A stretch of DNA of 64,000 nucleotides from a virus (lineage: Duplodnaviria; Caudoviricetes). A model generated the notes under the pieces. It made no database searches, had not been told where the DNA came from, and saw only the letters and a program-made list of their open reading frames with translations. Each line of letters opens with the position of its first letter. Position 1 is the first letter of the stretch. The stretch lies in the IMG/VR virus record IMGVR_UViG_3300017722_005389; one strand, written 5' to 3'. Shown piece after piece: positions 1,841 to 48,060 of this stretch. The translations under genes were made by a program, and so were the position numbers.

Positions 1841-4045
1841 ATGGCAAATAGATTTTGGGTAGGTGGTGGAACAGGAAATTATAATTCCACAACAAATTGG
1901 TCTGCATCATCAGGTGGGGCATCGGGTGCTTCTGTGCCAACAAATACAGATGATGTATTTTTCAATGCGAGTAGTGGAAGTGGAACTGCAACTATAAATG
2001 TTGCATCCAATTGTTTGAGTTTAAATCTAACAGGATTTGCAGGTACTATAAATTTTGCAAATACTTTATCTTTAAATGGTACTTCTATAAATTTTGGTAC
2101 AGGGGGATATACTGTTTCAGGTGCAAGTAATTTAAGATTATTAACTGCAATGACTATTACAAGTAATGGAACTATCTACACAGGAAATGTTGATTTTGCA
2201 GGGAATGTTATATATACGCTTGCAGATAATATGTCTGTATCAGGTACGGTTATTTTTTCAACTTCAGGTAATGCAACTTTAAATGGGAATACTTTTAATA
2301 TTAGAGGTAATTTAACTCATTCGGGTAATGGAACTGTATTAGGAACAACTTCATTTATTTTAGGTGGAACAGGAACTTGGAATCATACTGCTTCGGGTGC
2401 TATAAGAAATAATTTAACTGTAAATACTATAGGGACTATCACATTAGGAACAAATGTAAGATATAATACAGGCACTTTGACGTATACTACAGGAACTGTT
2501 GTAACTACAGGTTCTACTTTAAATATTGCTACAGCAACAACTTTAACTACAAATGGTATTACTTGGAATAATATTTCATCAAGTGGTTCAGTTGTTATAA
2601 CATTAGGAAGCAATTTAACTTTAACAGGAACATTAACTGTGACTTCAGCATTAAGTTTTACTTTAGGTGGAAACAGTTTAATAAGTACAAATGCTAATTT
2701 ATTTTTGGATAATGGGTCATTTACTTTACCTGCAAACCAAACATTTAAATCTTTACTTACAGGAAATCTTACAGCAGCAATAAATAGTAATACTTTAACT
2801 TTAACAGAAAATATTACATTGGCAGCACCTACTACAGGTACTTCATCAATTGTATATGGAGGAACAGGAACTTGGACTGCATCAACTTCTGCACATATTA
2901 TAAACAATAATTTCACAATAAATACAGCAGGAACATTAACCATATCGGGTATAGTGTATAAAGGGACAAATACTTTTACCTATACTGCTGGTACAATCGT
3001 AGATACGGGGGCTACCGTTGTAGTGGGTAGTAGTGCAGGTGGAACTACTTGTAATGTCGCAGGAAAAACTTGGGAAAAATTGTTGATAAGTGGAGGAGTA
3101 ATCACTCTCACAAGTAATATAAATGCGGTTACATTAGGAACAACCGCTAATACTGCAATTTCTTTTACTCTTGGAGGGAATACATTAAATTTCACTCATT
3201 TGGAATTAGGTAGTCTTAATACCACTACATTACCTTCTGCGTGGGTTTGTCAAAATATCAATTATACACTTGCTTCATCAGGGACAATAAATGGATTCAG
3301 TATAACAATAAATGGAAATATTGTACAATCGGGTAATGGTGTTTTAAATGGAACAACTACGTTTACTTATGGAGGAACAGGCACTTGGTCAAGAACAGGT
3401 ACTACTTATTTTACAAACAGTTTTACAATTAATACTGCAGGCACTTTAACATTTTCAGGTGGAAGTATTGGTGGAGGCATTTTTACATATACTGCAGGGA
3501 CTGTTAATGTACAAACAGGTTCTATATTATATATAAGACAAGCTAGTACTACTATGAATCATGGTAATATTGTTTGGTATGATGTTATATTGGGTACCGC
3601 ATTAGGTGCAGGGGGTATTCCAAGTTTAGTTTTAAATAATAAACTAACTTGTAGTAATTCTTTAATATTGGGAACATCTTCTACAGTTTTTTCAGGTACT
3701 GATGGTACATTTGATACTTATGATTTATATTTTGGTTCGCCTTTATCTTCAAGTCAAACAACAAGACTTGTTGCTACAAAAACATATACTGTAAGAAGAT
3801 TGGTACAATGTACGCAAGCTCCATCTACATTTCCATTAATTTTAAATAGTACAGTAGCAGGTACAAGAGCAATATTTACAGTTCTTAAAGGTTCAACTAT
3901 AGATATAGGGTTTTTAAATGTAACAGATATAAATTCTTCTTTAGGAAAAAAATTATATTCCTATAGAGGGGTGATATCAAATTCTTTAAATTGGGCACAA
4001 TTGCCAACAGATGTAAAACCTGCGACTTCTATATTTGTAAATTAA
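1841..4045 (+). CDS. Repetitive G/T/N-rich beta-helix-like structural or adhesin protein (tail fibre-like)
   Basis: N-term NRFWVGGGTGN..W; three internal repeats GGTGTW..N.T(I/V)NT.GT.T..TYT.GT. Confidence 0.55.
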   Translation: MANRFWVGGGTGNYNSTTNWSASSGGASGASVPTNTDDVFFNASSGSGTATINVASNCLSLNLTGFAGTINFANTLSLNGTSINFGTGGYTVSGASNLRLLTAMTITSNGTIYTGNVDFAGNVIYTLADNMSVSGTVIFSTSGNATLNGNTFNIRGNLTHSGNGTVLGTTSFILGGTGTWNHTASGAIRNNLTVNTIGTITLGTNVRYNTGTLTYTTGTVVTTGSTLNIATATTLTTNGITWNNISSSGSVVITLGSNLTLTGTLTVTSALSFTLGGNSLISTNANLFLDNGSFTLPANQTFKSLLTGNLTAAINSNTLTLTENITLAAPTTGTSSIVYGGTGTWTASTSAHIINNNFTINTAGTLTISGIVYKGTNTFTYTAGTIVDTGATVVVGSSAGGTTCNVAGKTWEKLLISGGVITLTSNINAVTLGTTANTAISFTLGGNTLNFTHLELGSLNTTTLPSAWVCQNINYTLASSGTINGFSITINGNIVQSGNGVLNGTTTFTYGGTGTWSRTGTTYFTNSFTINTAGTLTFSGGSIGGGIFTYTAGTVNVQTGSILYIRQASTTMNHGNIVWYDVILGTALGAGGIPSLVLNNKLTCSNSLILGTSSTVFSGTDGTFDTYDLYFGSPLSSSQTTRLVATKTYTVRRLVQCTQAPSTFPLILNSTVAGTRAIFTVLKGSTIDIGFLNVTDINSSLGKKLYSYRGVISNSLNWAQLPTDVKPATSIFVN

Positions 4046-4059
4046 AAACATTATAACAC

Positions 4060-4524
4060 ATGGCAAAATATTGGACTGATGATGAAGGTCTTGAAAACAT
4101 GAAAAAATATTGTGTTGAACAAGATAGATGTCAATCGGAAGTTAGAAGCAAACTTATAGATCACCAAATATACGGTGAAAGAACGGAAGGTATCATAGCG
4201 GATTTGATTTCCGAAGGATACATAGATGAGCAAAGGTTTGCAAATTCATATACCAGGGGGAAGTTCAGAATGAATCATTGGGGCAAAACAAAAATCAAAC
4301 AAGGATTAAAGCTGAAGCAGATATCGGAGTATTGCATCAAAAGAGCTTTTAAAGAGATTGATGATGAAGTTTATTTAGAAACCTTATCAAATCTTCTAAA
4401 GAAAAAAGTATCTTCAATATCTGGAAATACTTATCAAAAGAAACAAAAACTAATTCAATACGCTCTTTCAAAAGGCTTCGAAAATTATGCTATTGAAATA
4501 GCTTTAGAAAATGTTAGCTTCTAA
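4060..4524 (+). CDS. recX: RecX regulatory protein, Bacteroidota type
   Basis: YC..QDRC..EVR.KL, GYIDEQRFA..Y.RGKFR.NHWG..KI, K.I.YAL.KGF motifs. Confidence 0.9.
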   Translation: MAKYWTDDEGLENMKKYCVEQDRCQSEVRSKLIDHQIYGERTEGIIADLISEGYIDEQRFANSYTRGKFRMNHWGKTKIKQGLKLKQISEYCIKRAFKEIDDEVYLETLSNLLKKKVSSISGNTYQKKQKLIQYALSKGFENYAIEIALENVSF

Positions 4525-4561
4525 TGAAAGTTTGAAAATTACTTTACTATTTATATCAAAA

Positions 4562-5341
4562 ATGATTTTACTTACAGAATCACAATTAAAACTATTAGTA
4601 GAACGTCAAGGTGATTTGGATTTTATTAAAACTTCAAATGAAATTTTTAATATTCTTTTTAAATTTACAAATTCTTTAGATGAAATTAAAAAAGATGGAT
4701 TACTCAGAAACGCTTTGGCAAACTTCCAAAGTAAGTTTCCTGAAATTTCTTTAGAAACCAAAAGAAGAAATCAAAAAATTGCGGATGTAATTTTGAAATA
4801 TACCATAAACTCAGAAGATTATTTTACTGAATTTGAAAATAAAGAACTTTCTTTTGAGATTTATTTTATTACCAATAAATTCAGATCTTATGGAGTTTAT
4901 GATGAACAGGGAATTATAAAAATTTATTGTGAAATGAATTCTTTAAAAGAATCATTTTCAGAAGCGTTTTTGAAACGTAAAGGTGAATTATCGCATGAGC
5001 TGAAACATTTTTATGACGATCAAAAAACAAAATTTAAAGCAAGTTCTAATTACCAGTATGCACCATCAAGATTGGTAAAAGGAAAAGAGAAAGATTTGAT
5101 GACAAAAAAATATTATAATCAGGCTTTTGAAAAAAATGCCTTCTTCACTACAATTTTACAAAAAGCAATTGAAATTTATGATTCATTGAAAGATGAATAT
5201 GGCACAAAAAATGAAGCGATCAAAGCTACATATAATGAATTAGAAGATTATATGGAAAGTCTTTATGATGATGGTTATTTTTCTGCAGACATAAAAAGAT
5301 ATATGCTTTCGAGGCTTTATACTTCTTTGGAAAAATTATGA
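4562..5341 (+). CDS. Leader-bearing protein with zincin HExxH motif
   Basis: Start re-called to MILLTESQLKLLVE (track 4511), TATTTATA at 4548; LSHELKH. Confidence 0.65.
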   Translation: MILLTESQLKLLVERQGDLDFIKTSNEIFNILFKFTNSLDEIKKDGLLRNALANFQSKFPEISLETKRRNQKIADVILKYTINSEDYFTEFENKELSFEIYFITNKFRSYGVYDEQGIIKIYCEMNSLKESFSEAFLKRKGELSHELKHFYDDQKTKFKASSNYQYAPSRLVKGKEKDLMTKKYYNQAFEKNAFFTTILQKAIEIYDSLKDEYGTKNEAIKATYNELEDYMESLYDDGYFSADIKRYMLSRLYTSLEKL

Positions 5342-5363
5342 TATTTATAATAAAATTATTCTA

Positions 5364-5852
5364 ATGAAAAAAATTTTGATTCTTGAGGAGACTTATAAAC
5401 TTCTTTTTGAAAACATCAATGATTATTCGAAATGGAAAAGAAAAAATGTTACATTGAGAGGAATGAAATCACTTGGTGTTGATAATGGAGTTTGGGGTTC
5501 CTTTGGAAGAGGATTATATACTGAGCCTTTAAGTAATAAAGCAATGGCAAAACAGTATGGTGATGTTTATTTTGTAGTAAATGCTGTTCCAAAAAATCCT
5601 AAAATTGTAAATGGAATGAATAATGCAGAACTATGGAGACAAGATTTGGTTGAAAAATTCTGTAAAGCACATGGGGTTGATTATAGTGTAGGATTTTTTG
5701 AAGAGCACACTTCAATAGAAGAAGAAATGTTGAAATTAGGTTATGATGGCTTTATGATCAAAGGACGAGAAATGGTAAATTACAAACCTGAAAATATTAA
5801 ATATTTTAGAAATGAAGATGAATTAAAACGTTATTTTGAATCTATTAATTAG
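5364..5852 (+). CDS. Leader-bearing ADP-ribosyltransferase-like protein (ART-PolyVal-like)
   Basis: Leader MKKILILEETYKLLFE; FGRGLYT, YG.VY, NP, GYDG, E.V.Y.P pattern. Confidence 0.5.
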   Translation: MKKILILEETYKLLFENINDYSKWKRKNVTLRGMKSLGVDNGVWGSFGRGLYTEPLSNKAMAKQYGDVYFVVNAVPKNPKIVNGMNNAELWRQDLVEKFCKAHGVDYSVGFFEEHTSIEEEMLKLGYDGFMIKGREMVNYKPENIKYFRNEDELKRYFESIN

Positions 5853-5894
5853 AAGAAATATAAAAAAAAGTTAAATACTAGAAAATAAATAATT

Positions 5895-5928
5895 AAAAAA
5901 AGGTGCTAAAAATTTTAGCACCTTTTTG
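5895..5928. terminator. Bidirectional intrinsic terminator
   Basis: AAAAAGGTGCTAAAA/TTTTAGCACCTTTTT hairpin between convergent genes. Confidence 0.85.
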
Positions 5929-5930
5929 TT

Positions 5931-6335
5931 TTAATGTTTCAATGTCAGAAGATATTTTGTTTTTGCGGTTAAAGCCATAACTTCATCAAGAAGATTTTTT
6001 ATAAAGCTTTCTTCAATCTGCTCATAATACCCCATAATTTTTTTGCAGAAGCCTTCCATGTATTTCATGGAACAACCTTCACTGTAAGGTTTGAATCTCA
6101 ATCCAAACTCACCATTGGTACGTTGGTGAGCCCCCATATAAACTTCAACGAGATTGTCGCTTAAATCTGAGATACCTTCATAAAATGCTCCCAAAGCCAT
6201 ATGCTCTGAATAGAAAGTTGTTTGTTGATGCCAGAATTTGATTTGAATAGTGGCATGTTCAAGACATTGAAAAAGGTCTAAAGAATTCAATTCTTCCATT
6301 GAATCTCCAAATCCCATTGAATTTTTATACTCCAT
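5931..6335 (-). CDS. Ferritin/Dps-like four-helix bundle protein (DUF5856-like)
   Basis: HWQ-like WHQQT, EH.ALG.FYE, D.LVE.Y.G, L.DE...L..KT.YLLTL. Confidence 0.7.
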   Translation of the reverse strand: MEYKNSMGFGDSMEELNSLDLFQCLEHATIQIKFWHQQTTFYSEHMALGAFYEGISDLSDNLVEVYMGAHQRTNGEFGLRFKPYSEGCSMKYMEGFCKKIMGYYEQIEESFIKNLLDEVMALTAKTKYLLTLKH

Positions 6336-6401
6336 ATTGAAACTTTTATTATAAATACTCTGTTAAGGATAAAATAAACAAGTATTAAATAAAAAAAGAT
6401 T

Positions 6402-6719
6402 ATGAAAGAATTAACAGAACGTACACTAAAGGAAGCATTGAAGGAAAATAAATTGGTTTTTAGTTACTATGGAGCCAAATGGTGTTCGCCATGTAATGCA
6501 ATACATCCAATTGTTGAAGAACTCTCAAAAGAAAATGATAATATTTTCATTGGAAAAGTAGATGTGGAAACAAATCCAGAACTTTGTGATGAATATGGCA
6601 TAAGAAGTATTCCAGCTCTCATATTTTATAAGAATGGAGAACCTGTTGAAAGATTACTTGGATTTCATAGTAAAGCTGATCTTCAAGCAGTTATAGATAA
6701 ACTTTCTAAGGAAAACTAA
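6402..6719 (+). CDS. trxA: Thioredoxin
   Basis: WCSPC active site, KVDVE, GIRSIP, F.KNGE. Confidence 0.9.
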   Translation: MKELTERTLKEALKENKLVFSYYGAKWCSPCNAIHPIVEELSKENDNIFIGKVDVETNPELCDEYGIRSIPALIFYKNGEPVERLLGFHSKADLQAVIDKLSKEN

Positions 6720-6723
6720 AATT

Positions 6724-6768
6724 ATATTCCGCCAAAAGTCAATATTTTTATCACTTTTGGCGGAATAT
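6724..6768. repeat. Perfect 16-bp inverted repeat (terminator or operator) between trxA and thyA
   Basis: ATATTCCGCCAAAAGT / ACTTTTGGCGGAATAT with 13-nt loop. Confidence 0.75.
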
Positions 6769-6810
6769 GAACTTTTTAATAGAATATTGAGTTGTTATAT
6801 TTAAACCATT

Positions 6811-7647
6811 ATGATTAATAAAGCAGATTTATACTTCAAAAGAAACCTCAACCTAATTCTTGATGAAGGTTGTTGGGATGAAAACCCAAGACCTAAATAT
6901 AAAGATGGAACCCCAGCACATACCAAATTCATCACTCAGGTTTATGAGGAATATAATATTTCTAAGGGAGAATTCCCTATAACAACATTAAGACCGACTG
7001 CTATCAAAACAGGCATCAAAGAGATTCTTTGAATATATCAAAAGCAAACAGCTTCACTTCAAGTTGCTCGTGAAATGGGCATAAATTGGTGGGATGAATG
7101 GAATATAGGTGACGATACTATAGGATTAAGATACGGTGCGACTGTTAAGAAGTGGGATATTATGAATAAAGTTTTAGATTCAGTAAAAAATAATCCATTT
7201 TCAAGAAGACATATCATAAACCTTTATCAAGAATCAGATTTAGCTGAAAGTGCTGGATTACACCCTTGTGCATTTTTAGCTGAATTCCATGTAAGAAAAG
7301 TTAATGGTAATTATATTTTAGATTTGACCTTATATCAAAGAAGTTCAGACTATATTATGGCAAATATTATAAACAAGTGCCAGTATTTAGCTTTGCAAAT
7401 GATGGTTGCTGGACATTGTGGATATAGCGTAGGAAAGTTTTGCCATTTCGTTGGGAATTTACATATTTACGATCGACATATGCCTGCAGTAGAAGAACTA
7501 TTGAAAAAAGAACCATTAGAAAATAATCATCCGTATATAGAATTGAATACTCAAAAGAACTTTTACGAATATTCTTTGGAAGATTTTAAAATTCACAATA
7601 CAAAATTTGTAACCAATATCGTAAACAAATTAGAAATCGCAATATGA
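6811..7647 (+). pseudogene. thyA: Thymidylate synthase interrupted by an in-frame TGA at 7030-7032
   Basis: Track ORFs 6811-7032 and 7075-7647 are in the same frame; FPITTLR..A.K..IKEIL*IYQ, W.EW, YG, L.PC, LYQRS.D, N..QY, HIYDRH. Confidence 0.85.
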
Positions 7648-12176: not shown

Positions 12177-13010
12177 ATGAAATTCATTTATTCTATCTTT
12201 AGAAAATATAAGTTCTCATTATTACTTATATATTTTTACATGTTAGTTGCACAATTATTATTTTTGGCTGAACCATTCATACTTGGGAAGGCTATTGATG
12301 GATTGTTAACAAAAAATTATATTTGGTTAATAGTATTTTTAGCTGTTGAACTTTTACACAATGTTTTTATGTATCGAAGAATGGTGTTTGATACTAAAGT
12401 ATATGTTAAAATTTATAATGACATAATCTTTAATTTCTTAAGAAACAACAAAGAGGTTGACATTTCAGCTAAGATCGCAAGAACAGATATGTCACGTAGT
12501 ATAATAGGTTTTTTAGAAGGAGATATTCATTTTTTTATAATGGCAATTGTTACTGTCATCGGAAGTCTTTTTTTTATATTTATGCAGCATGCTTTAACTG
12601 GAGTTATTGTAGTTTGTTCGATACTGCCTATTACAATAACTGCAATAGTATTCTATAAAAAAATTGCCCAGTCTACTAAAGTTGGAAACACTCATTACGA
12701 ACAAAAGGCTAGTATTATGCATTCTGAGGATGAATCTCAAATTGATACTTATTTCAAAAGAAGAGCCAGGATCATTGTGATGCAATCCACATTACAAGGA
12801 AGAAATTGGGTTTCATTGAATGTTGCAAAGACAATTTTTCTTGTCTTATCATTATTTATTTTCACAAGTAAAAATATAGATATGACTCAAGGAGAAGCTA
12901 TTGCAATGTACGCCTACCTCAATCAGTTTATAATAGCTTTAATGTCTATTCCAATTGCAATGGAAACTATAACAAGAATTAAAGATGTTATAGGTAGAAT
13001 TAAATCGTAA
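12177..13010 (+). CDS. ABC transporter six-TM membrane domain, stand-alone
   Basis: L.EPF.LG.AID.LL, RR..DT.VY, multiple TM helices; no Walker motifs nearby. Confidence 0.7.
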   Translation: MKFIYSIFRKYKFSLLLIYFYMLVAQLLFLAEPFILGKAIDGLLTKNYIWLIVFLAVELLHNVFMYRRMVFDTKVYVKIYNDIIFNFLRNNKEVDISAKIARTDMSRSIIGFLEGDIHFFIMAIVTVIGSLFFIFMQHALTGVIVVCSILPITITAIVFYKKIAQSTKVGNTHYEQKASIMHSEDESQIDTYFKRRARIIVMQSTLQGRNWVSLNVAKTIFLVLSLFIFTSKNIDMTQGEAIAMYAYLNQFIIALMSIPIAMETITRIKDVIGRIKS

Positions 13011-13471: not shown

Positions 13472-13774
13472 ATGAAAAAAATTGAAGACAAAATTAAATT
13501 TGTAGAGAAGTCAATTCTCGAAATCAAATCAATGATGGAAAAATCTAATGCTTTATATAAATTAGGTGTGGATATATTAGAAGTTGATATGGGTATTGAA
13601 TTAGTTATTGAATCATTTAAGTATATTTTCAATGAAAGTATATGTGAAACGATCTCATGGTGGATATTCGAAGATGTTGAAAAAACCATAGATGTAAATG
13701 GTAAAACATACAATCTTGAAAAATTAGAAGATTTATTAAAATTTATTAATGACGATTATAAAGGTGTATTATAA
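13472..13774 (+). CDS. Hypothetical protein
   Basis: ISWWIFE, LEDL..FI pattern. Confidence 0.6.
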   Translation: MKKIEDKIKFVEKSILEIKSMMEKSNALYKLGVDILEVDMGIELVIESFKYIFNESICETISWWIFEDVEKTIDVNGKTYNLEKLEDLLKFINDDYKGVL

Positions 13775-13873
13775 TTTCTTAGGAGCAATCATTGTTCTTT
13801 TGAAAGGATTTTTTAGTACAAATTTTAGATATAAAACAAATAAAACTAAATGAGACAAATACCTTGTTAGGCT

Positions 13874-14140
13874 ATGTTTAAAATATTCAAGAGTTACATT
13901 AAATGGAAACTTATCTCTATAATAAAGGATAAGCTGATACACTATTTATCGGAGAAACACAATTATTCACAAAGACAAAATGAATGGAAGTGCAAGGTTT
14001 ATGATGGTAAATGCTTAACAAAGGAACGATTTGAAAAAGAGCAAGAGGAGCAGATACGATGGTCGAATGAGCAATGGAAAGTTAATCATCATAAATATGA
14101 AGCGGTTTTGGAGATACTTAGAATAGTGGAGGGTCTGTAA
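13874..14140 (+). CDS. Hypothetical protein, cassette-like (GTTAGGC core site 2 nt before ATG)
   Basis: GTTAGGC at 13866-13872; attC-like arm follows the stop. Confidence 0.65.
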   Translation: MFKIFKSYIKWKLISIIKDKLIHYLSEKHNYSQRQNEWKCKVYDGKCLTKERFEKEQEEQIRWSNEQWKVNHHKYEAVLEILRIVEGL

Positions 14141-14147
14141 ATATTGT

Positions 14148-14361
14148 CTATAACGGTTCTCGGCTATACGTCAGGTTTTTTGCGAATTTGAAACACTAAA
14201 ATTAAAATATATGATGCGAGTAATTGAAATGACACACTCTGAAAAAGTAGAGATGTATCAAATGATTGAAAAAGACAGATTGATAGAAATGCTGATAGAG
14301 GCAAATAATGTTATTAACCGACTAACGGAAGTAAAAAACTTGCGTATAGCCGATGTTAGTG
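14148..14361 (+). mobile_element. Long integron attC-like site with an ORF start in its loop
   Basis: CTATAAC..CGGCTATACG-T-CAGGTTTTTT pairs with AAAAAACTTG-CGTATAGCCG..GTTAGTG; one extrahelical base. Confidence 0.65.
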
Positions 14362-14450
14362 GTTCGTTGCCATGCCATCATAACTATATACAAAAAGACA
14401 CTTATTGGAAAAGTTGCACTCATTGTGGAATGATAGCCCCATTAGGGTAA
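14211..14450 (+). CDS. Hypothetical protein spanning the attC-like R' site; C-terminal CxxC
   Basis: Junction reads LRIADVSGS; ACCACTAAC follows the stop. Confidence 0.6.
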   Translation: MMRVIEMTHSEKVEMYQMIEKDRLIEMLIEANNVINRLTEVKNLRIADVSGSLPCHHNYIQKDTYWKSCTHCGMIAPLG

Positions 14451-14508
14451 TGACCACTAACTAAAATATATATACACCTCAAAACAACTCACTTCAAAAA
14501 ATAAAATT

Positions 14509-14886
14509 ATGGAAATTAAAAAATTTGAAATGTACCTAGATGGTGGTACAATTGAACTAACGACAGATAAAGGAATTTTCTGTTTTGACAAAAGAATTAG
14601 AAGTAGTACAAAGGGTAGATTATACGATGGTTATCCTAAAGATGATAATTCTAACCTAATAGAAAATTCAGTTGATTTGGAACAAGAACTAATTGAACAA
14701 TTAAAATTGTTTAAGAGTGACTTCTATCAAAGTTCAATTGATTACTTTATTAACTCAAACAAAAATAATATTAGTGTTAACGAAGTGGAGTTTTGTAATT
14801 GTGGTAATCCAAGTGGTGGACATCATTGCTATGTAGATGAAAATATAATTGAATGTGCTGATTGTGGGAAACAATTACAAAATTAA
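14509..14886 (+). CDS. Hypothetical protein with C-terminal Zn-ribbon segment
   Basis: CNC..CADC; AACACTAAC at the stop. Confidence 0.6.
   Translation: MEIKKFEMYLDGGTIELTTDKGIFCFDKRIRSSTKGRLYDGYPKDDNSNLIENSVDLEQELIEQLKLFKSDFYQSSIDYFINSNKNNISVNEVEFCNCGNPSGGHHCYVDENIIECADCGKQLQN
14684..14759 (+). repeat. 76-bp exact direct repeat, copy 1 (copy 2 at 15522-15597)
   Basis: AAGAACTAATTGAACAA...TAACTCAAA occurs twice, encoding ELIEQLKLFKSDFYQSSIDYFINS. Confidence 0.9.
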
Positions 14887-14978
14887 CACTAACTAATCGC
14901 TAACCGCAATACTCTTATATTATTAATATGAATGTAAAAGAATATTTGAAATGATAATATTTATATATAAAAGAAAAG

Positions 14979-15488
14979 ATGAATGATTTGAGAAAGTTTA
15001 TTAAAAATATTATAAAAGAATTTTTAAATGAACAACAAATGTTAAACAGTGATGGTATATGGTATCACGGTAGTGATTTTAAAAAACCAAATTTTGATTC
15101 TGATTTTAAACCTATTTTTTTTACTAAAAGTAAAGAGTATGCTGAAGGTTATGGTAAGTTTGTTAATTCATATAAATTAAACATAAAAAATCCATTAGAT
15201 ACAAGAATAGAAAAAGATTTAATATTTTATAATGAAAAATTCATACCTTGGACTAAAGAGTATAAATACACTGAAAAAGATGGTAGATATAATACATTAG
15301 ATAAAGGATTGGCTGTTCCTATGATAACAGCAAATTTATTGTATCTGTTTTTACGAAAATCAAAAAGAGAAGGATTAAATCATAATTATGATGGTGTTAT
15401 TGTTGATGAATCGGGATTTGAATTTGATAACGAGTTGGCAAAATATTCTTTATTTCCTTTGTCATTCACACAAATTTTAAATATATGA
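14979..15488 (+). CDS. Leader-bearing ADP-ribosyltransferase (ART-PolyVal-like)
   Basis: MNDLRKFIKNIIKEFLNE; WYHGS, IFFT.SKEYA..YG, L.IKNPLD, YDGVI, F...QI; TATTTATA at 14958. Confidence 0.7.
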   Translation: MNDLRKFIKNIIKEFLNEQQMLNSDGIWYHGSDFKKPNFDSDFKPIFFTKSKEYAEGYGKFVNSYKLNIKNPLDTRIEKDLIFYNEKFIPWTKEYKYTEKDGRYNTLDKGLAVPMITANLLYLFLRKSKREGLNHNYDGVIVDESGFEFDNELAKYSLFPLSFTQILNI

Positions 15489-16027
15489 AAAAAGTAGAAA
15501 TGGTAAAAACAATTGAGTTCAAAGAACTAATTGAACAATTAAAATTGTTTAAGAGTGACTTCTATCAAAGTTCAATTGATTACTTTATTAACTCAAAAAA
15601 AATAAATATGGAAAACTTAAAAGTAAAATACTTAGGCGTTGTTATTGGATATACTTATGATGGGAAAAAAATAGAATTTTTAGATAATGAACATTCTAAA
15701 GAAATTCAAAAAACACTATCAGAAGGTCACACAATAGGTCTATCATCAAGACGAATGGGGACTGTTGGCGAAAATGGTTATGTTAATTATGAAAAAATAA
15801 CTGAGTACAATGTTATCAATCGTCTTGATGAAATAATTAACTCAAAACAAAAAATACAAATGATAACCGAAGAAGAATACTTAAAAGCAAAGCAGATAGT
15901 TCAAGAATATGAAAAACAATTGGATATATCTAATGTTAGTTGTAGTTATATTGATAAATTAGGTAATGATGAACTAAAACAACGTGAAATAGATAGAAAA
16001 TGGGCTAAGGATAGAAATATATTATAA
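15485..16027 (+). CDS. Mosaic hypothetical protein (real start may be MENLK at ~15608)
   Basis: Contains repeat copy 2 and GTTAGTTGTA at 15935. Confidence 0.55.
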   Translation: MKKVEMVKTIEFKELIEQLKLFKSDFYQSSIDYFINSKKINMENLKVKYLGVVIGYTYDGKKIEFLDNEHSKEIQKTLSEGHTIGLSSRRMGTVGENGYVNYEKITEYNVINRLDEIINSKQKIQMITEEEYLKAKQIVQEYEKQLDISNVSCSYIDKLGNDELKQREIDRKWAKDRNIL

Positions 16028-16104
16028 TTACAACTAACTATCGCTAACCGCAATGCTCTTATATTACTAATATTGCTGTATAAGCCTAATAATTTCAATT
16101 AAAT

Positions 16105-16977
16105 ATGATAATATCTATCTCTGGAAAAAAACAGTCTGGTAAAGACACGATTGCTGACATTATAAAGTCACTCATATATTGCCATATTGATGGCACTGAA
16201 CTTACAGAAGAAAATTTTGAATCTATAAGACATTGTAGGATTCATAATTACAAAGTCAAAAAATTCGCAGGAAAGCTTAAAGAAGTTGCAGCAATAATGC
16301 TTGGATGTAATCCTAAAGATTTTGAATCAGAAGAATTTAAAAATAGCATCCTTGGAGAAGAATGGTGGTACTATCAAGATAATGTGAACAATAAGTTTTT
16401 AGCCCCTTATTTGACTAAGTTTAGGTCTGAATCAGAAAATAAATTGTTACTTGAAAACAATTATGCTCTTTTGATGAGAACGACTCCAAGAACATTCCTT
16501 CAGAGATTGGCAACAGATGCTGTCAGAGAAAATTTACATTCTTGTTCTTGGATAAATTCCACCTTAGCAGATTATAACCCCAAAGAATTTTGGGTTATAA
16601 CAGATACAAGATTTGAGAATGAATTAAATGCTATAAAATACAAGGAACCTAAATTTTTTAATATTAGAGTTGAAAGATTACAATCTTTTGAAGATTGGTG
16701 TAACCAATATAAAGATTATGTAACTTTTATCAAAAATTTTGAACACATGGATGATAAGATATCTTCTAATGGTTTTTGGAGTTTATTGCATACCTCTAAA
16801 GGATATTTTAAACCTAATGAAGAAACCTTTACAACTCTAATTAATAATCTCAGTCATGAAAGTGAAACTCAATTAGATCATTATAATAACCTGGATTTTT
16901 TTATTGAAAATAAAGGTTCTATTGGAGATTTAATAGATAGAGTTAAATGGTTTATGATCGAAAATAAATTACTTTAA
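16105..16977 (+). CDS. Deoxynucleoside monophosphate kinase (T4 gp1-like)
   Basis: ISGKKQSGKDT P-loop, KFA..LK, PR..LQ..., VITD.RF.NE, H.SE. Confidence 0.8.
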   Translation: MIISISGKKQSGKDTIADIIKSLIYCHIDGTELTEENFESIRHCRIHNYKVKKFAGKLKEVAAIMLGCNPKDFESEEFKNSILGEEWWYYQDNVNNKFLAPYLTKFRSESENKLLLENNYALLMRTTPRTFLQRLATDAVRENLHSCSWINSTLADYNPKEFWVITDTRFENELNAIKYKEPKFFNIRVERLQSFEDWCNQYKDYVTFIKNFEHMDDKISSNGFWSLLHTSKGYFKPNEETFTTLINNLSHESETQLDHYNNLDFFIENKGSIGDLIDRVKWFMIENKLL

Positions 16978-40074: not shown

Positions 40075-40245
40075 TTATTTTTTAAGTTGATTAAAAAAAT
40101 TTAAAATCTTCTCTAATTGCTTATCATCATTTGGATAGAACTCACCTTTTTTAAATTGCTCACCCTTCTCATATCCATATTTATCAGCAATATAAGCAAT
40201 GGCTACTTTCATTTTATAATCTTCGATAGATATCACATTTTTCAT
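40075..40245 (-). CDS. Hypothetical 56-aa protein (not in track)
   Basis: MKNVISIEDYKMKVAIAYIADKYGYEKGE..., translated by hand. Confidence 0.5.
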   Translation of the reverse strand: MKNVISIEDYKMKVAIAYIADKYGYEKGEQFKKGEFYPNDDKQLEKILNFFNQLKK

Positions 40246-40336: not shown

Positions 40337-40522
40337 TTATTTGTTTTTCATTTGAGGATACCACTCATCCTTAAACGCAATATAATCTTGTAAAGTGTTC
40401 ATTTCATCAAGTTCAATCCTTGTAAATAAATCTTCAATTGCAAAATAAACAATTGTTGAATTATTAGGATTCATAGCATCTTGAATCAATCTCCACGATC
40501 TTAACACAAATTCTTTTTCCAT
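40337..40522 (-). CDS. Hypothetical protein flanked by attC-like half sites
   Basis: Start re-called to MEKEF (track 40567). Confidence 0.55.
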   Translation of the reverse strand: MEKEFVLRSWRLIQDAMNPNNSTIVYFAIEDLFTRIELDEMNTLQDYIAFKDEWYPQMKNK

Positions 40523-47963: not shown

Positions 47964-48060
47964 AGTCCTGTGGCGGAATTGGTAGACGCACCGAAAGGTA
48001 GGAACGGTATGGAACCCGATTAAATAATCCTAATTACAGGTTCAAATCCTGTCAGGACCA
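47964..48060 (+). tRNA. tRNA-like RNA, class II (Leu-like D/T arms), non-canonical anticodon arm
   Basis: GTCCTG/CAGGAC acceptor, TGGCGGAATTGGTAGACGC D-arm, ACAGG-TTCAAAT-CCTGT T-arm; ACCG/CGGT stem with 11-nt loop; ends ACAA not ACCA. Confidence 0.65.

Follow-up and report, generated by a model that had tools for sequence, protein, structure and literature searches.

A probable decayed gene-cassette array in a Caudoviricetes genome and a possible integron analogue in huge Bacteroidota phages

We analysed 64,000 nucleotides (nt) of a Caudoviricetes virus, IMG/VR record IMGVR_UViG_3300017722_005389 (this whole stretch is called the window here). Comparison with related sequences suggests that its 13.85-16.1 kb region is probably what is left of an array, now decayed, that belonged to a site-specific gene-cassette system found in a clade of huge Bacteroidota phages, with a second relic on the minus strand at about 40.1-41.0 kb. 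We put forward a broader proposal more tentatively: these phages may encode their own analogue of the integron, made up of hairpin cassettes, a site resembling attI and a short integrase of Xer-like type, in which a valine codon at the recombination core would fuse a hairpin-encoded leader in frame to interchangeable C-terminal modules, a form of DNA-level exon shuffling. A first-pass annotation of the window, made from its letters alone, had proposed that integron attC-like sites embedded in open reading frames (ORFs) swap protein C termini in frame, either with an integrase acting in trans or as a relic resembling a cluster of attC sites lacking an integron integrase (CALIN).

Relatives are denoted by L-numbers, which stand for stretches from IMG/VR or from genomes, and many of these loci were fetched solely through a pattern for a compact 48-nt hairpin with the loop TCGTTTTAATG, so that the pattern itself fixed the loop. 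Arrays in the relatives alternate two types of segment, hairpins (TAAC…GTTA) and bodies (GTTA plus 5 nt … 5 nt plus TAAC). Hairpin segments span TAA/C to G/TTA, where the slash marks the break, range from 48 to about 300 nt and have covarying stems; the two ends of a body are complementary to each other, and every such pair is unique. One end of the array adjoins, at a TAAC, an attI-like sequence and the gene for a recombinase of 268 amino acids (aa). The compact hairpins have a fully paired stem of 11 base pairs (bp) and the invariant TCGTTTTAATG loop, a loop also seen in every array inspected, and their asymmetry consists of an internal loop of 5 nt against 1-2 nt. The 44 distinct compact hairpins are 97.3% paired, compensatory changes affect 10 of the 11 inner-stem pairs, and none of 500 shuffles matched the covariation score. 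The layout of TAAC, spacer, stem, loop, stem, T(T) and GTTA thus covaries and forms an imperfect hairpin of the attC kind, with one long example in the window (14151-14363). The likeness to attC that had been proposed does not extend to the whole of the compact class's structure, which has a conserved loop and zero bulged bases in place of the extrahelical bases and variable loop of attC.

Among 94 units of this paired kind, the ORF on the sense strand is the longer one in 86 and stops no more than 40 nt from the body end in 74, with a median body of 326 nt; the median distance from GTTA to the ATG is 46 nt, and bodies behind compact hairpins have an ATG of their own. The compact hairpin occurs in at least 120 IMG/VR stretches, many of them in contigs of 100-460 kb, and five genomes that are 98-100% complete (309-465 kb) have 4-8 model matches apiece, in one to three clusters. 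The 21 genome contigs with the hairpin come mostly from Bacteroidota metagenome-assembled genomes (MAGs) and from isolates of Marivirga and Putridiphycobacter, and the INPHARED phage collection gave a single match, in an uncultured 462-kb phage. The compact hairpin is present in the cultured Bacteroidota Marivirga aurantiaca (L139) and Putridiphycobacter roseus (L144). In L016 and L069 an 'empty' body reads GTTATAAAA-TCGTTTTAATG-TTTTATAAC, its complementary ends closing directly on the conserved 11-nt loop. L135, a 5.7-kb contig binned as a Methanolobus MAG and probably a mis-binned phage or Bacteroidota contig, has 13 exact GTTA+5/5+TAAC pairs between hairpins of about 116 nt. A separate repeat family, distinct from the hairpins, lies in L004 at 3500-7500, where a motif precedes many small ORFs (..HLSLVLKV.. 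in minus-strand translations).

We counted complementary body ends at the 66 hairpins with room on both sides, seeking the complement downstream within 1.5 kb. An exact complement of the GTTA extension is found for 45 of the 66 with 8-mers, 30 with 9-mers and 21 with 10-mers, against 3, 2 and 1 upstream and 2, 0 and 0 for shuffled extensions, and the in-place neighbour is complementary in only 1, 0 and 0 of them. L005 has seven consecutive GTTA+5 … 5+TAAC pairs, all exact and unique. As in integrons, each cassette begins with a sequence complementary to the inverse core at its own end, and the window has such cases at 14355/14453 and 15935/16030.

Three such pairs had been picked out in the window, within ORFs, and re-examination bore out that the sites lie there. 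GTTAGTGGT at 14355 and ACCACTAAC at 14453 are an exact 9/9 complement, as are GTTAGTTGT at 15935 and ACAACTAAC at 16030, which lengthen to 16 nt at 94%. The middle pair, ATTAGTGTT at 14770 and AACACTAAC at 14885, is present but matches at 8 of 9 positions as first noted; a perfect 10-bp stem can be drawn instead at 14771-14780 / 14883-14892. Enrichment over shuffled sequence, taken in the window only, holds for one kind of pair and not for another: inverted pairs of any 9 nt spaced 60-160 nt apart show no enrichment, with 112 seen where 120 are expected, whereas pairs prefixed by GTT (5 against 1.3 expected) and by GTTAG (2 against 0.2) are modestly above expectation. Four copies of ACTAACTA occur in the 64 kb, three of them in this region and every one of these at or just past a stop codon. 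On this comparative evidence we regard the inverted GTTA…TAAC pairs as real, with decisive support coming from the relatives and the window-only statistics being modest.

The recombinase gene is closely tied to these arrays. In genome G009 a 268-aa tyrosine recombinase (L126, 1177-1983) is encoded directly after the array, and homologues with 43-83% identity, several of them only fragments or remnants, occur in 22 loci fetched through the hairpin. Every one lies on the same strand as, and downstream of, the matched hairpins of its locus, and the ORFs in the arrays point towards it. At the 17 junctions that we read, the last body ends in TAAC and is followed, without a hairpin, by a conserved TA..TATATA sequence about 55 nt before the recombinase ATG, so that in these 17 loci an attI-like site stands beside the integrase gene, as it does in integrons. 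From that TAAC onwards L051 and L006 are 95.6% identical over 1751 nt, and upstream of it they are unrelated. The protein has the domains PF00589 and PF13495, and its best family matches are XerA and integron integrase, with scores under the integron-integrase cut-offs (156.7 bits against 265 for TIGR02249, 178.8 against 220 for NF040815). Its nearest solved structures are XerA and VchIntIA; in the alignment to VchIntIA, the part between the two aligned stretches counts 33 residues in the phage protein and 81 in IntI4, a shortfall of about 48 at what we take to be the place of the IntI-specific insertion. An IntI with its additional domain is therefore seen neither in the window nor among the relatives, whose recombinase has no such insertion. 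The proposed integron logic thus stands for the hairpins with TAAC and GTTA cores and for the mutually complementary body ends; its enzyme has to be replaced by one that differs from IntI and is phage-encoded in the relatives.

This enzyme family is common. At E <= 1e-20, 4,751 proteins match the recombinase, a number that must include unrelated Xer and integrase relatives; the best 120 of the 4,751 are all at least 79% identical to it, so the close family is abundant in metagenomes, labelled only XerD. Recombinases 39-41% identical to the phage one are encoded in four of five Bacteroidota genomes searched, including that of Putridiphycobacter roseus, and two bacterial ORFs that we read (from a Putridiphycobacter MAG and P. 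roseus) are longer at the N terminus by a domain of about 110 aa; only weaker matches, 34-35% identical, came from Marivirga aurantiaca. In genome G006 (L127, 1162-2588) the recombinase gene is split by a gene for a GIY-YIG/NUMOD3 homing endonuclease that runs in the other direction, its own last 32 codons resuming about 830 nt on, and in G009 (L126, 2032-2727) a SIR2-family gene lies directly 3' of the recombinase gene.

Comparing loci pairwise shows where the modules part. Homology breaks at TAAC in about 24-26 locus pairs and at GTTA in about 5-6, so that TAAC is involved roughly four times as often and breakpoints are not confined to the GTT named in the first-pass annotation; a single G/TT crossover with promoterless ORFs that a common promoter reads away from intI, the integron pattern, is not what these arrays display. 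Both flanks are unrelated in 47 pairs of long hairpins with an identity of 85% or more. We considered and discarded a crossover solely at TAA/C with each hairpin tied to its downstream ORF, a model under which the exon idea of the first-pass annotation would have been unnecessary. It was overturned by shared bodies behind different hairpins, by identical long hairpins before unrelated bodies and by the frame statistics given below. That annotation had set beforehand, as a test, a search for one N-terminal half joined to different C-terminal halves, and such a case exists: L013 and L029, the latter together with the window, switch right after GTTAGT. The leader MI.E.EYLKAKQIVQEYEKQLNISDVS is common to L013 (1741-1989) and L029, which continue beyond GTTAGT into unrelated C termini, each with its own complementary ends (GTTAGTGAT/ATCACTAAC versus GTTAGTTGT/ACAACTAAC). 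Conversely, L094 and L095 have one body behind two different leaders. Two other candidates were dropped: a DNA inversion switch, as the antisense frames of the three window units do not stay open in register in a consistent way and bodies throughout the family share one orientation with their hairpins, and a resemblance of GTTAGT and ACTAAC to eukaryotic splice signals, these two sequences being mere reverse complements of each other.

The long hairpins, which we define as those of at least 80 nt with a partner (n = 102), also have a coding role. Their loops contain an ATG and a leader of 20-45 aa that reads into the body, which has no start of its own. With read-through taken as a stop no more than 48 nt from the body end, the reading from the loop ATG via the 3' arm and GTT reaches the body end in 50 of the 102, and the frame of the GTT codon is the open frame of the body in 59 of 68 cases. 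Compact hairpins gave no read-through (0/96) and an even spread of frames (12/12/9). Leaders vary, with endings such as ..NLNISDVS or ..KKLHISDVS. A loop ATG and a GTT (Val) read-through into a startless body argue that leaders and C-terminal modules are recombined in frame. That shared leaders might serve as a common address tag, for example for the packaging or injection of variable effectors, is pure speculation.

Against this background, the parts of the window array can be named. The features below are given with their strand:

13855-13872 (+): remnant of a hairpin 3' arm and its GTTA core (..ATACCTT-GTTAGGC), with the 5' arm missing
13874-14140 (+): 88-aa ORF, a cassette-type body with its own ATG 8 nt past the core; no family match
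14146-14154 (+): end core GTCTATAAC of the preceding body, with TAAC at 14151-14154, followed by a GGTTC spacer and then the hairpin
14154-14355 (+): long hairpin segment; spacer 14155-14159, 5' arm 14160-14180, loop 14181-14332, 3' arm 14333-14353, then T and the core G
14211-14450 (+): 79-aa ORF, with a 48-aa leader (ending ..NLRIADVS) from the hairpin loop and 3' arm and 31 aa from unit 1
14355-14461 (+): unit 1, body segment GTTAGTGGT … ACCACTAAC, end complementarity 9/9
14458-14495 (+): attI-like sequence after the terminal TAAC (TAACTAAAATATATATACACCT..), attI profile E = 0.57, suggestive only
14509-14886 (+): fused 125-aa ORF, whose residues 1-85 are a cassette ORF that stops at ..INSKQK in L003 and L004
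14684-14771 (+): conserved cassette tail; it is the first copy of a direct repeat of 88 nt, the other copy (15522-15609) being 97% identical
14770-14893 (+): unit 2, ATTAGTGTT … AACACTAAC, with a Cys/His-rich tail and an inner 11-bp inverted repeat (14793-14803 / 14871-14881; z = -3.0)
14888-14940 (+): copy 1 of a repeat of about 52 nt after the terminal TAAC; the same element lies upstream of the deoxynucleoside monophosphate (dNMP) kinase gene in L001 and L002
14979-15488 (+): 169-aa ORF with a weak ART-PolyVal match (E = 1.3e-4, under the cut-off)
15485-16027 (+): chimeric 180-aa ORF; residues 13-41 repeat the cassette tail, 47-122 match an L066 cassette ORF (67%) and 123-180 match an L029 cassette ORF (93%)
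15851-15934 (+): 3' part of a long hairpin, with ATG 15860 in its loop and the 3' arm at 15921-15932, from alignment to the intact L029 cassette
15935-16038 (+): unit 3, body segment GTTAGTTGTAGTTATA … TATAATTACAACTAAC; homology to L029 stops exactly at ..CTAAC
16033-16085 (+): copy 2 of the repeat of about 52 nt, ahead of the gene for dNMP kinase
16105-16977 (+): dNMP kinase gene, which borders the variable locus and is conserved, with 82% identity in L001 and L002
40070-40970 (-): second decayed array, with end core GTGTATAAC, then GGTTG, and a hairpin truncated into the cassette leader (about 40570-40530)
40337-40522 and 40075-40245 (-): remainder of the second array; a small ORF at the former, a conserved tail ..TTTTGTTTTATTACCTATAAC ending CCTATAAC, then ..CCTTGTTAAT before an ORF at the latter

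The GTTAGGC core that had been noticed upstream of ATG 13874 is indeed there, at 13866-13872. The ..ATACCTTGTTA ending to which it belongs also closes intact hairpins of L005, L023 and L121; its partner arm and a matching end core were looked for nearby, and neither was found. The long attC-like hairpin described earlier was likewise recovered, as an inverted repeat of 21 nt (14160-14180 / 14333-14353) that is 86% complementary with one bulge, and its loop does contain the ORF start claimed for it, ATG 14211; the DNA fold of the stem has z = -3.5. The order of TAAC, GGTTC and hairpin at 14146 is exactly that of the relatives (TAACGGTTC.. in L005), and the architecture of 14154-14355 is that of the long hairpins in L005, L013 and L029. 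The leader ending of ORF 14211 compares with the family ending ..NLNISDVS, the GTT frame is retained and the final 31 aa are Cys/His-rich. In relatives, an equivalent of the attI-like sequence at 14458 lies about 55 nt upstream of the recombinase gene, and in the window that place is occupied instead by ORF 14509.

The other two units are less complete. The pair of unit 3, GTTAGTTGT/ACAACTAAC, recurs in L029 at 93% amino-acid identity, and by comparison with L029 the TAAC, spacer and 5' arm of its hairpin have been deleted. Unit 2 has the marks of a body, with its frame kept, a Cys/His-rich product and complementary ends; it is probably a body segment whose hairpin was lost by deletion at a TTA microhomology, because homology with the L004 and L006 tails reaches ..ATATTA. 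In ORF 14509 a 1-nt deletion in an A-run lets the reading continue into unit 2. The cassette tail, which in relatives is complementary to the cassette leader, recurs in the ..AACTCAAAACAAAAATAA-type form (..INSKQK at the stop) at 14758-14765, 15595-15605 and 15845-15856, where A-run indels abolish the stop and fuse adjacent ORFs. Judged by the relatives, ORFs 14509 and 15485 are evidently fusions produced by deletions and frameshifts in these A-rich cassette tails. The proposed swap of C-terminal modules accordingly survives for units 1 and 3, which read in frame from a hairpin-loop start, and gives way for unit 2, joined through a deletion and a 1-nt frameshift; nor is ORF 15485 the product of a clean exchange, being a three-part fusion at A-runs instead. 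The tails of units 1 and 2 have no convincing homologues among the fetched loci.

The window therefore retains an intact hairpin with its body (unit 1), half a hairpin (unit 3), a unit with no hairpin (unit 2) and no recombinase. The first-pass annotation was right that the window has no IntI, as we found no recombinase of any kind within it, and right in suspecting a relic. A CALIN is taken to comprise at least two attC sites called by the IntegronFinder model with no integrase nearby; the window has one intact hairpin beside truncated ones. Unless this genome encodes the recombinase elsewhere, the window copy is a fossil.

We propose a mechanism in which the recombinase would act on a folded or extruded hairpin built on the TAAC/GTTA box. 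One strand would be exchanged at the core, and the junction would show as TAA/C or G/TTA depending on the strand used, with replication resolving the intermediate in the fashion of integrons. The excised circle would bear a full stem formed from the body's own ends, which would account for the complementarity of those ends. Exactly two junction positions would be expected if the TAAC…GTTA site is symmetric, either of its strands can undergo the single-strand exchange and replication resolves the product.

Several known systems resemble this one, and two of them supply rival explanations. With integrons, including sedentary chromosomal integrons with their conserved attC classes, it shares a tyrosine recombinase gene at the end of an array of small cassettes with the primary half-site beside it, imperfect hairpin sites with AAC/GTT-type cores, cassettes whose start and end are complementary to each other and not to their in-place flanks, and one hairpin class attached to many unrelated ORFs. 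It differs in its 268-aa recombinase without about 48 VchIntIA residues, in compact sites with an invariant loop and no bulges, in ORFs that face the recombinase and junctions at both cores, in long sites whose start codon and leader peptide lead an in-frame reading over the core, and in its carriers, which are huge phages. The system is thus integron-like in its working and fails several defining features of integrons. One could still suppose that these are true attC sites served in trans by a host IntI, the phage arrays being CALINs that were acquired from integrons of the host. CALINs with attC sites active on attI1 under IntI1 have been reported in virulent phages, one of them a Polaribacter phage (PMC9892861), the GTTA/TAAC core partly fits G/TTRRRY, and the hairpin also occurs in Bacteroidota genome contigs. 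We nevertheless think this improbable, given that 22 loci have their own adjacent recombinase and attI-like site, that the enzyme lacks the IntI insertion and scores under the integron-integrase cut-offs, that the loop is conserved, bulges are absent and junctions fall at both cores, and that ORFs face the recombinase gene while the window has no IntI. The phage CALINs are alike in being integrase-less clusters of attC-type sites in lytic phages, one of which infects a Flavobacteriia host (Qi et al. 2023, PMC9892861); they were found by attC models, are functional with IntI1 and are few (17), and their description mentions neither a dedicated recombinase family encoded by phages nor hairpins with a conserved loop nor reading in frame (PMC9892861).

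A somewhat better candidate, though an unlikely one, is that the hairpins are composite terminator/promoter cassettes of the promoter early stem-loop (PeSL) type, shuffled by homologous recombination with the recombinase as a bystander. In T4-type phages, PeSLs are short conserved stem-loops that flank small accessory ORFs in hyperplastic regions, act as modular exchange points, mediate shuffling and form mini-circles (PMC2839356, PMC4122927); the hairpins here are followed by a T-rich tract and lie upstream of ORFs, and some hybrid hairpins exist. PeSL exchange, however, is homologous recombination between near-identical repeats, whereas homology here breaks at the cores between unrelated hairpin classes. 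Such exchange leaves unexplained the unique mutual complementarity of body ends, the breaks at 4-nt cores where the two hairpins differ in class and in length, the hairpin-less attI-like half-site beside the recombinase and the tight linkage to a single recombinase family. PeSLs themselves show neither unique complementarity of ends nor junctions placed precisely at a core, and have neither an associated recombinase nor a coding role. Selection on RNA, with GUUA…UAAC pairing that closes cistrons for mRNA stability or processing, would fit the covarying stems and the predicted DNA-strand stems that fold better than shuffles; we hold it to be very unlikely, as the hairpins match no Rfam family and as it does not explain the core breaks, the attI-like junction, the recombinase linkage or the exchange of modules between phages. 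Chance inverted repeats in AT-rich DNA are scarcely credible even though generic 9-nt pairs are as common as in shuffles, for an identical pair recurs in the 93%-identical relative L029, ACTAACTA is clustered and pairing reaches 45 of 66 family-wide against 2-3 in controls; the family-wide counts and the L029 pair already refute chance.

Two further systems differ more. Shufflons and other invertible segments (Rci of R64, Gin of Mu, Cin of P1) have sites in coding sequence that join a constant N-terminal part to alternative C-terminal parts in frame. Those systems invert within one locus, between a few fixed alternatives and at duplex sites, whereas here cassette-like modules are swapped from one genome to another and even the constant part, a hairpin segment, can be exchanged; the bodies are co-oriented, and the alternatives lie in different genomes. 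When CTX phage integrates at dif, a Xer enzyme acts on a hairpin-folded single-stranded site, a single strand is exchanged and replication resolves the product. The phage arrays differ from CTX in their many sites and cassettes and their phage-encoded enzyme, and no dif-like 28-bp site, with two 11-bp arms and a 6-8-bp centre, was noticed at the junctions read, where no dedicated dif search was made.

Several observations weigh against an integron analogue in these phages, and against reading the window as one of its arrays. All of the support consists of comparative sequence patterns. The insertion with which IntI reads extrahelical bases is missing from the recombinase, the compact hairpins lack bulges, and three of the five complete array-bearing genomes have no tyrosine recombinase. 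The junction pair counts are small and non-independent, and a few hybrid hairpins (L048/L082) resemble the outcome of homologous recombination inside the hairpin. Within the window, the covariance model of the compact hairpin found nothing significant, the attI-like relic at 14458-14480 is the sole attI-profile match and a weak one, and the A-run frameshifts could be assembly (homopolymer) errors.

The genomic setting is that of a variable locus. The window, at about 28% G+C, is phage-like, with genes for a tail fibre, ParB, a 3'-5' exonuclease and dNMP kinase; the region has no DNA match among deposited phages, and its IMG/VR relatives are fragments of genomes of about 270 kb (CheckV). Relative to L001 and L002, positions 13806-16035 form a variable insert bordered by a 35-nt remnant of a nuclease-like gene on one side and the dNMP kinase gene on the other. 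That remnant (13772-13806) is 100% identical to the interior of a 285-aa nuclease-like ORF (L001/L002, 4607-5464), the remainder of which is missing in the window. Upstream lies a 277-aa membrane ORF (12177-13010, +) with an ABC_membrane_3 match (PF13748, 66 bits), here in a phage context. Rfam gave zero family matches for the region and for three hairpin-rich loci. Elsewhere in the window, at 47964-48060 (+), an Rfam tRNA match of 97 nt (37.3 bits) has no ARAGORN call; its acceptor, D and T arms align, and the anticodon/variable region is about 25 nt overlong, which could reflect a long variable arm or a short insertion.

An integron-like gene-cassette system of huge Bacteroidota phages is apparently undescribed, as the literature searches that we made turned up no such system in huge phages. 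There is a likely blind spot here: the recombinases are labelled just XerD, and the hairpins are invisible to current Rfam models. If the in-frame reading holds, we know of no earlier case in which a cassette recombination core lies in frame inside genes and shuffles parts of proteins. If the proposal as a whole is true, integron-type cassette capture would extend beyond bacteria with IntI to a parallel, simpler, Xer-like system in a widespread clade of huge phages. It would then bear on the evolution of IntI from Xer-like ancestors, and would explain in concrete terms how phage genomes gain and lose small accessory genes.

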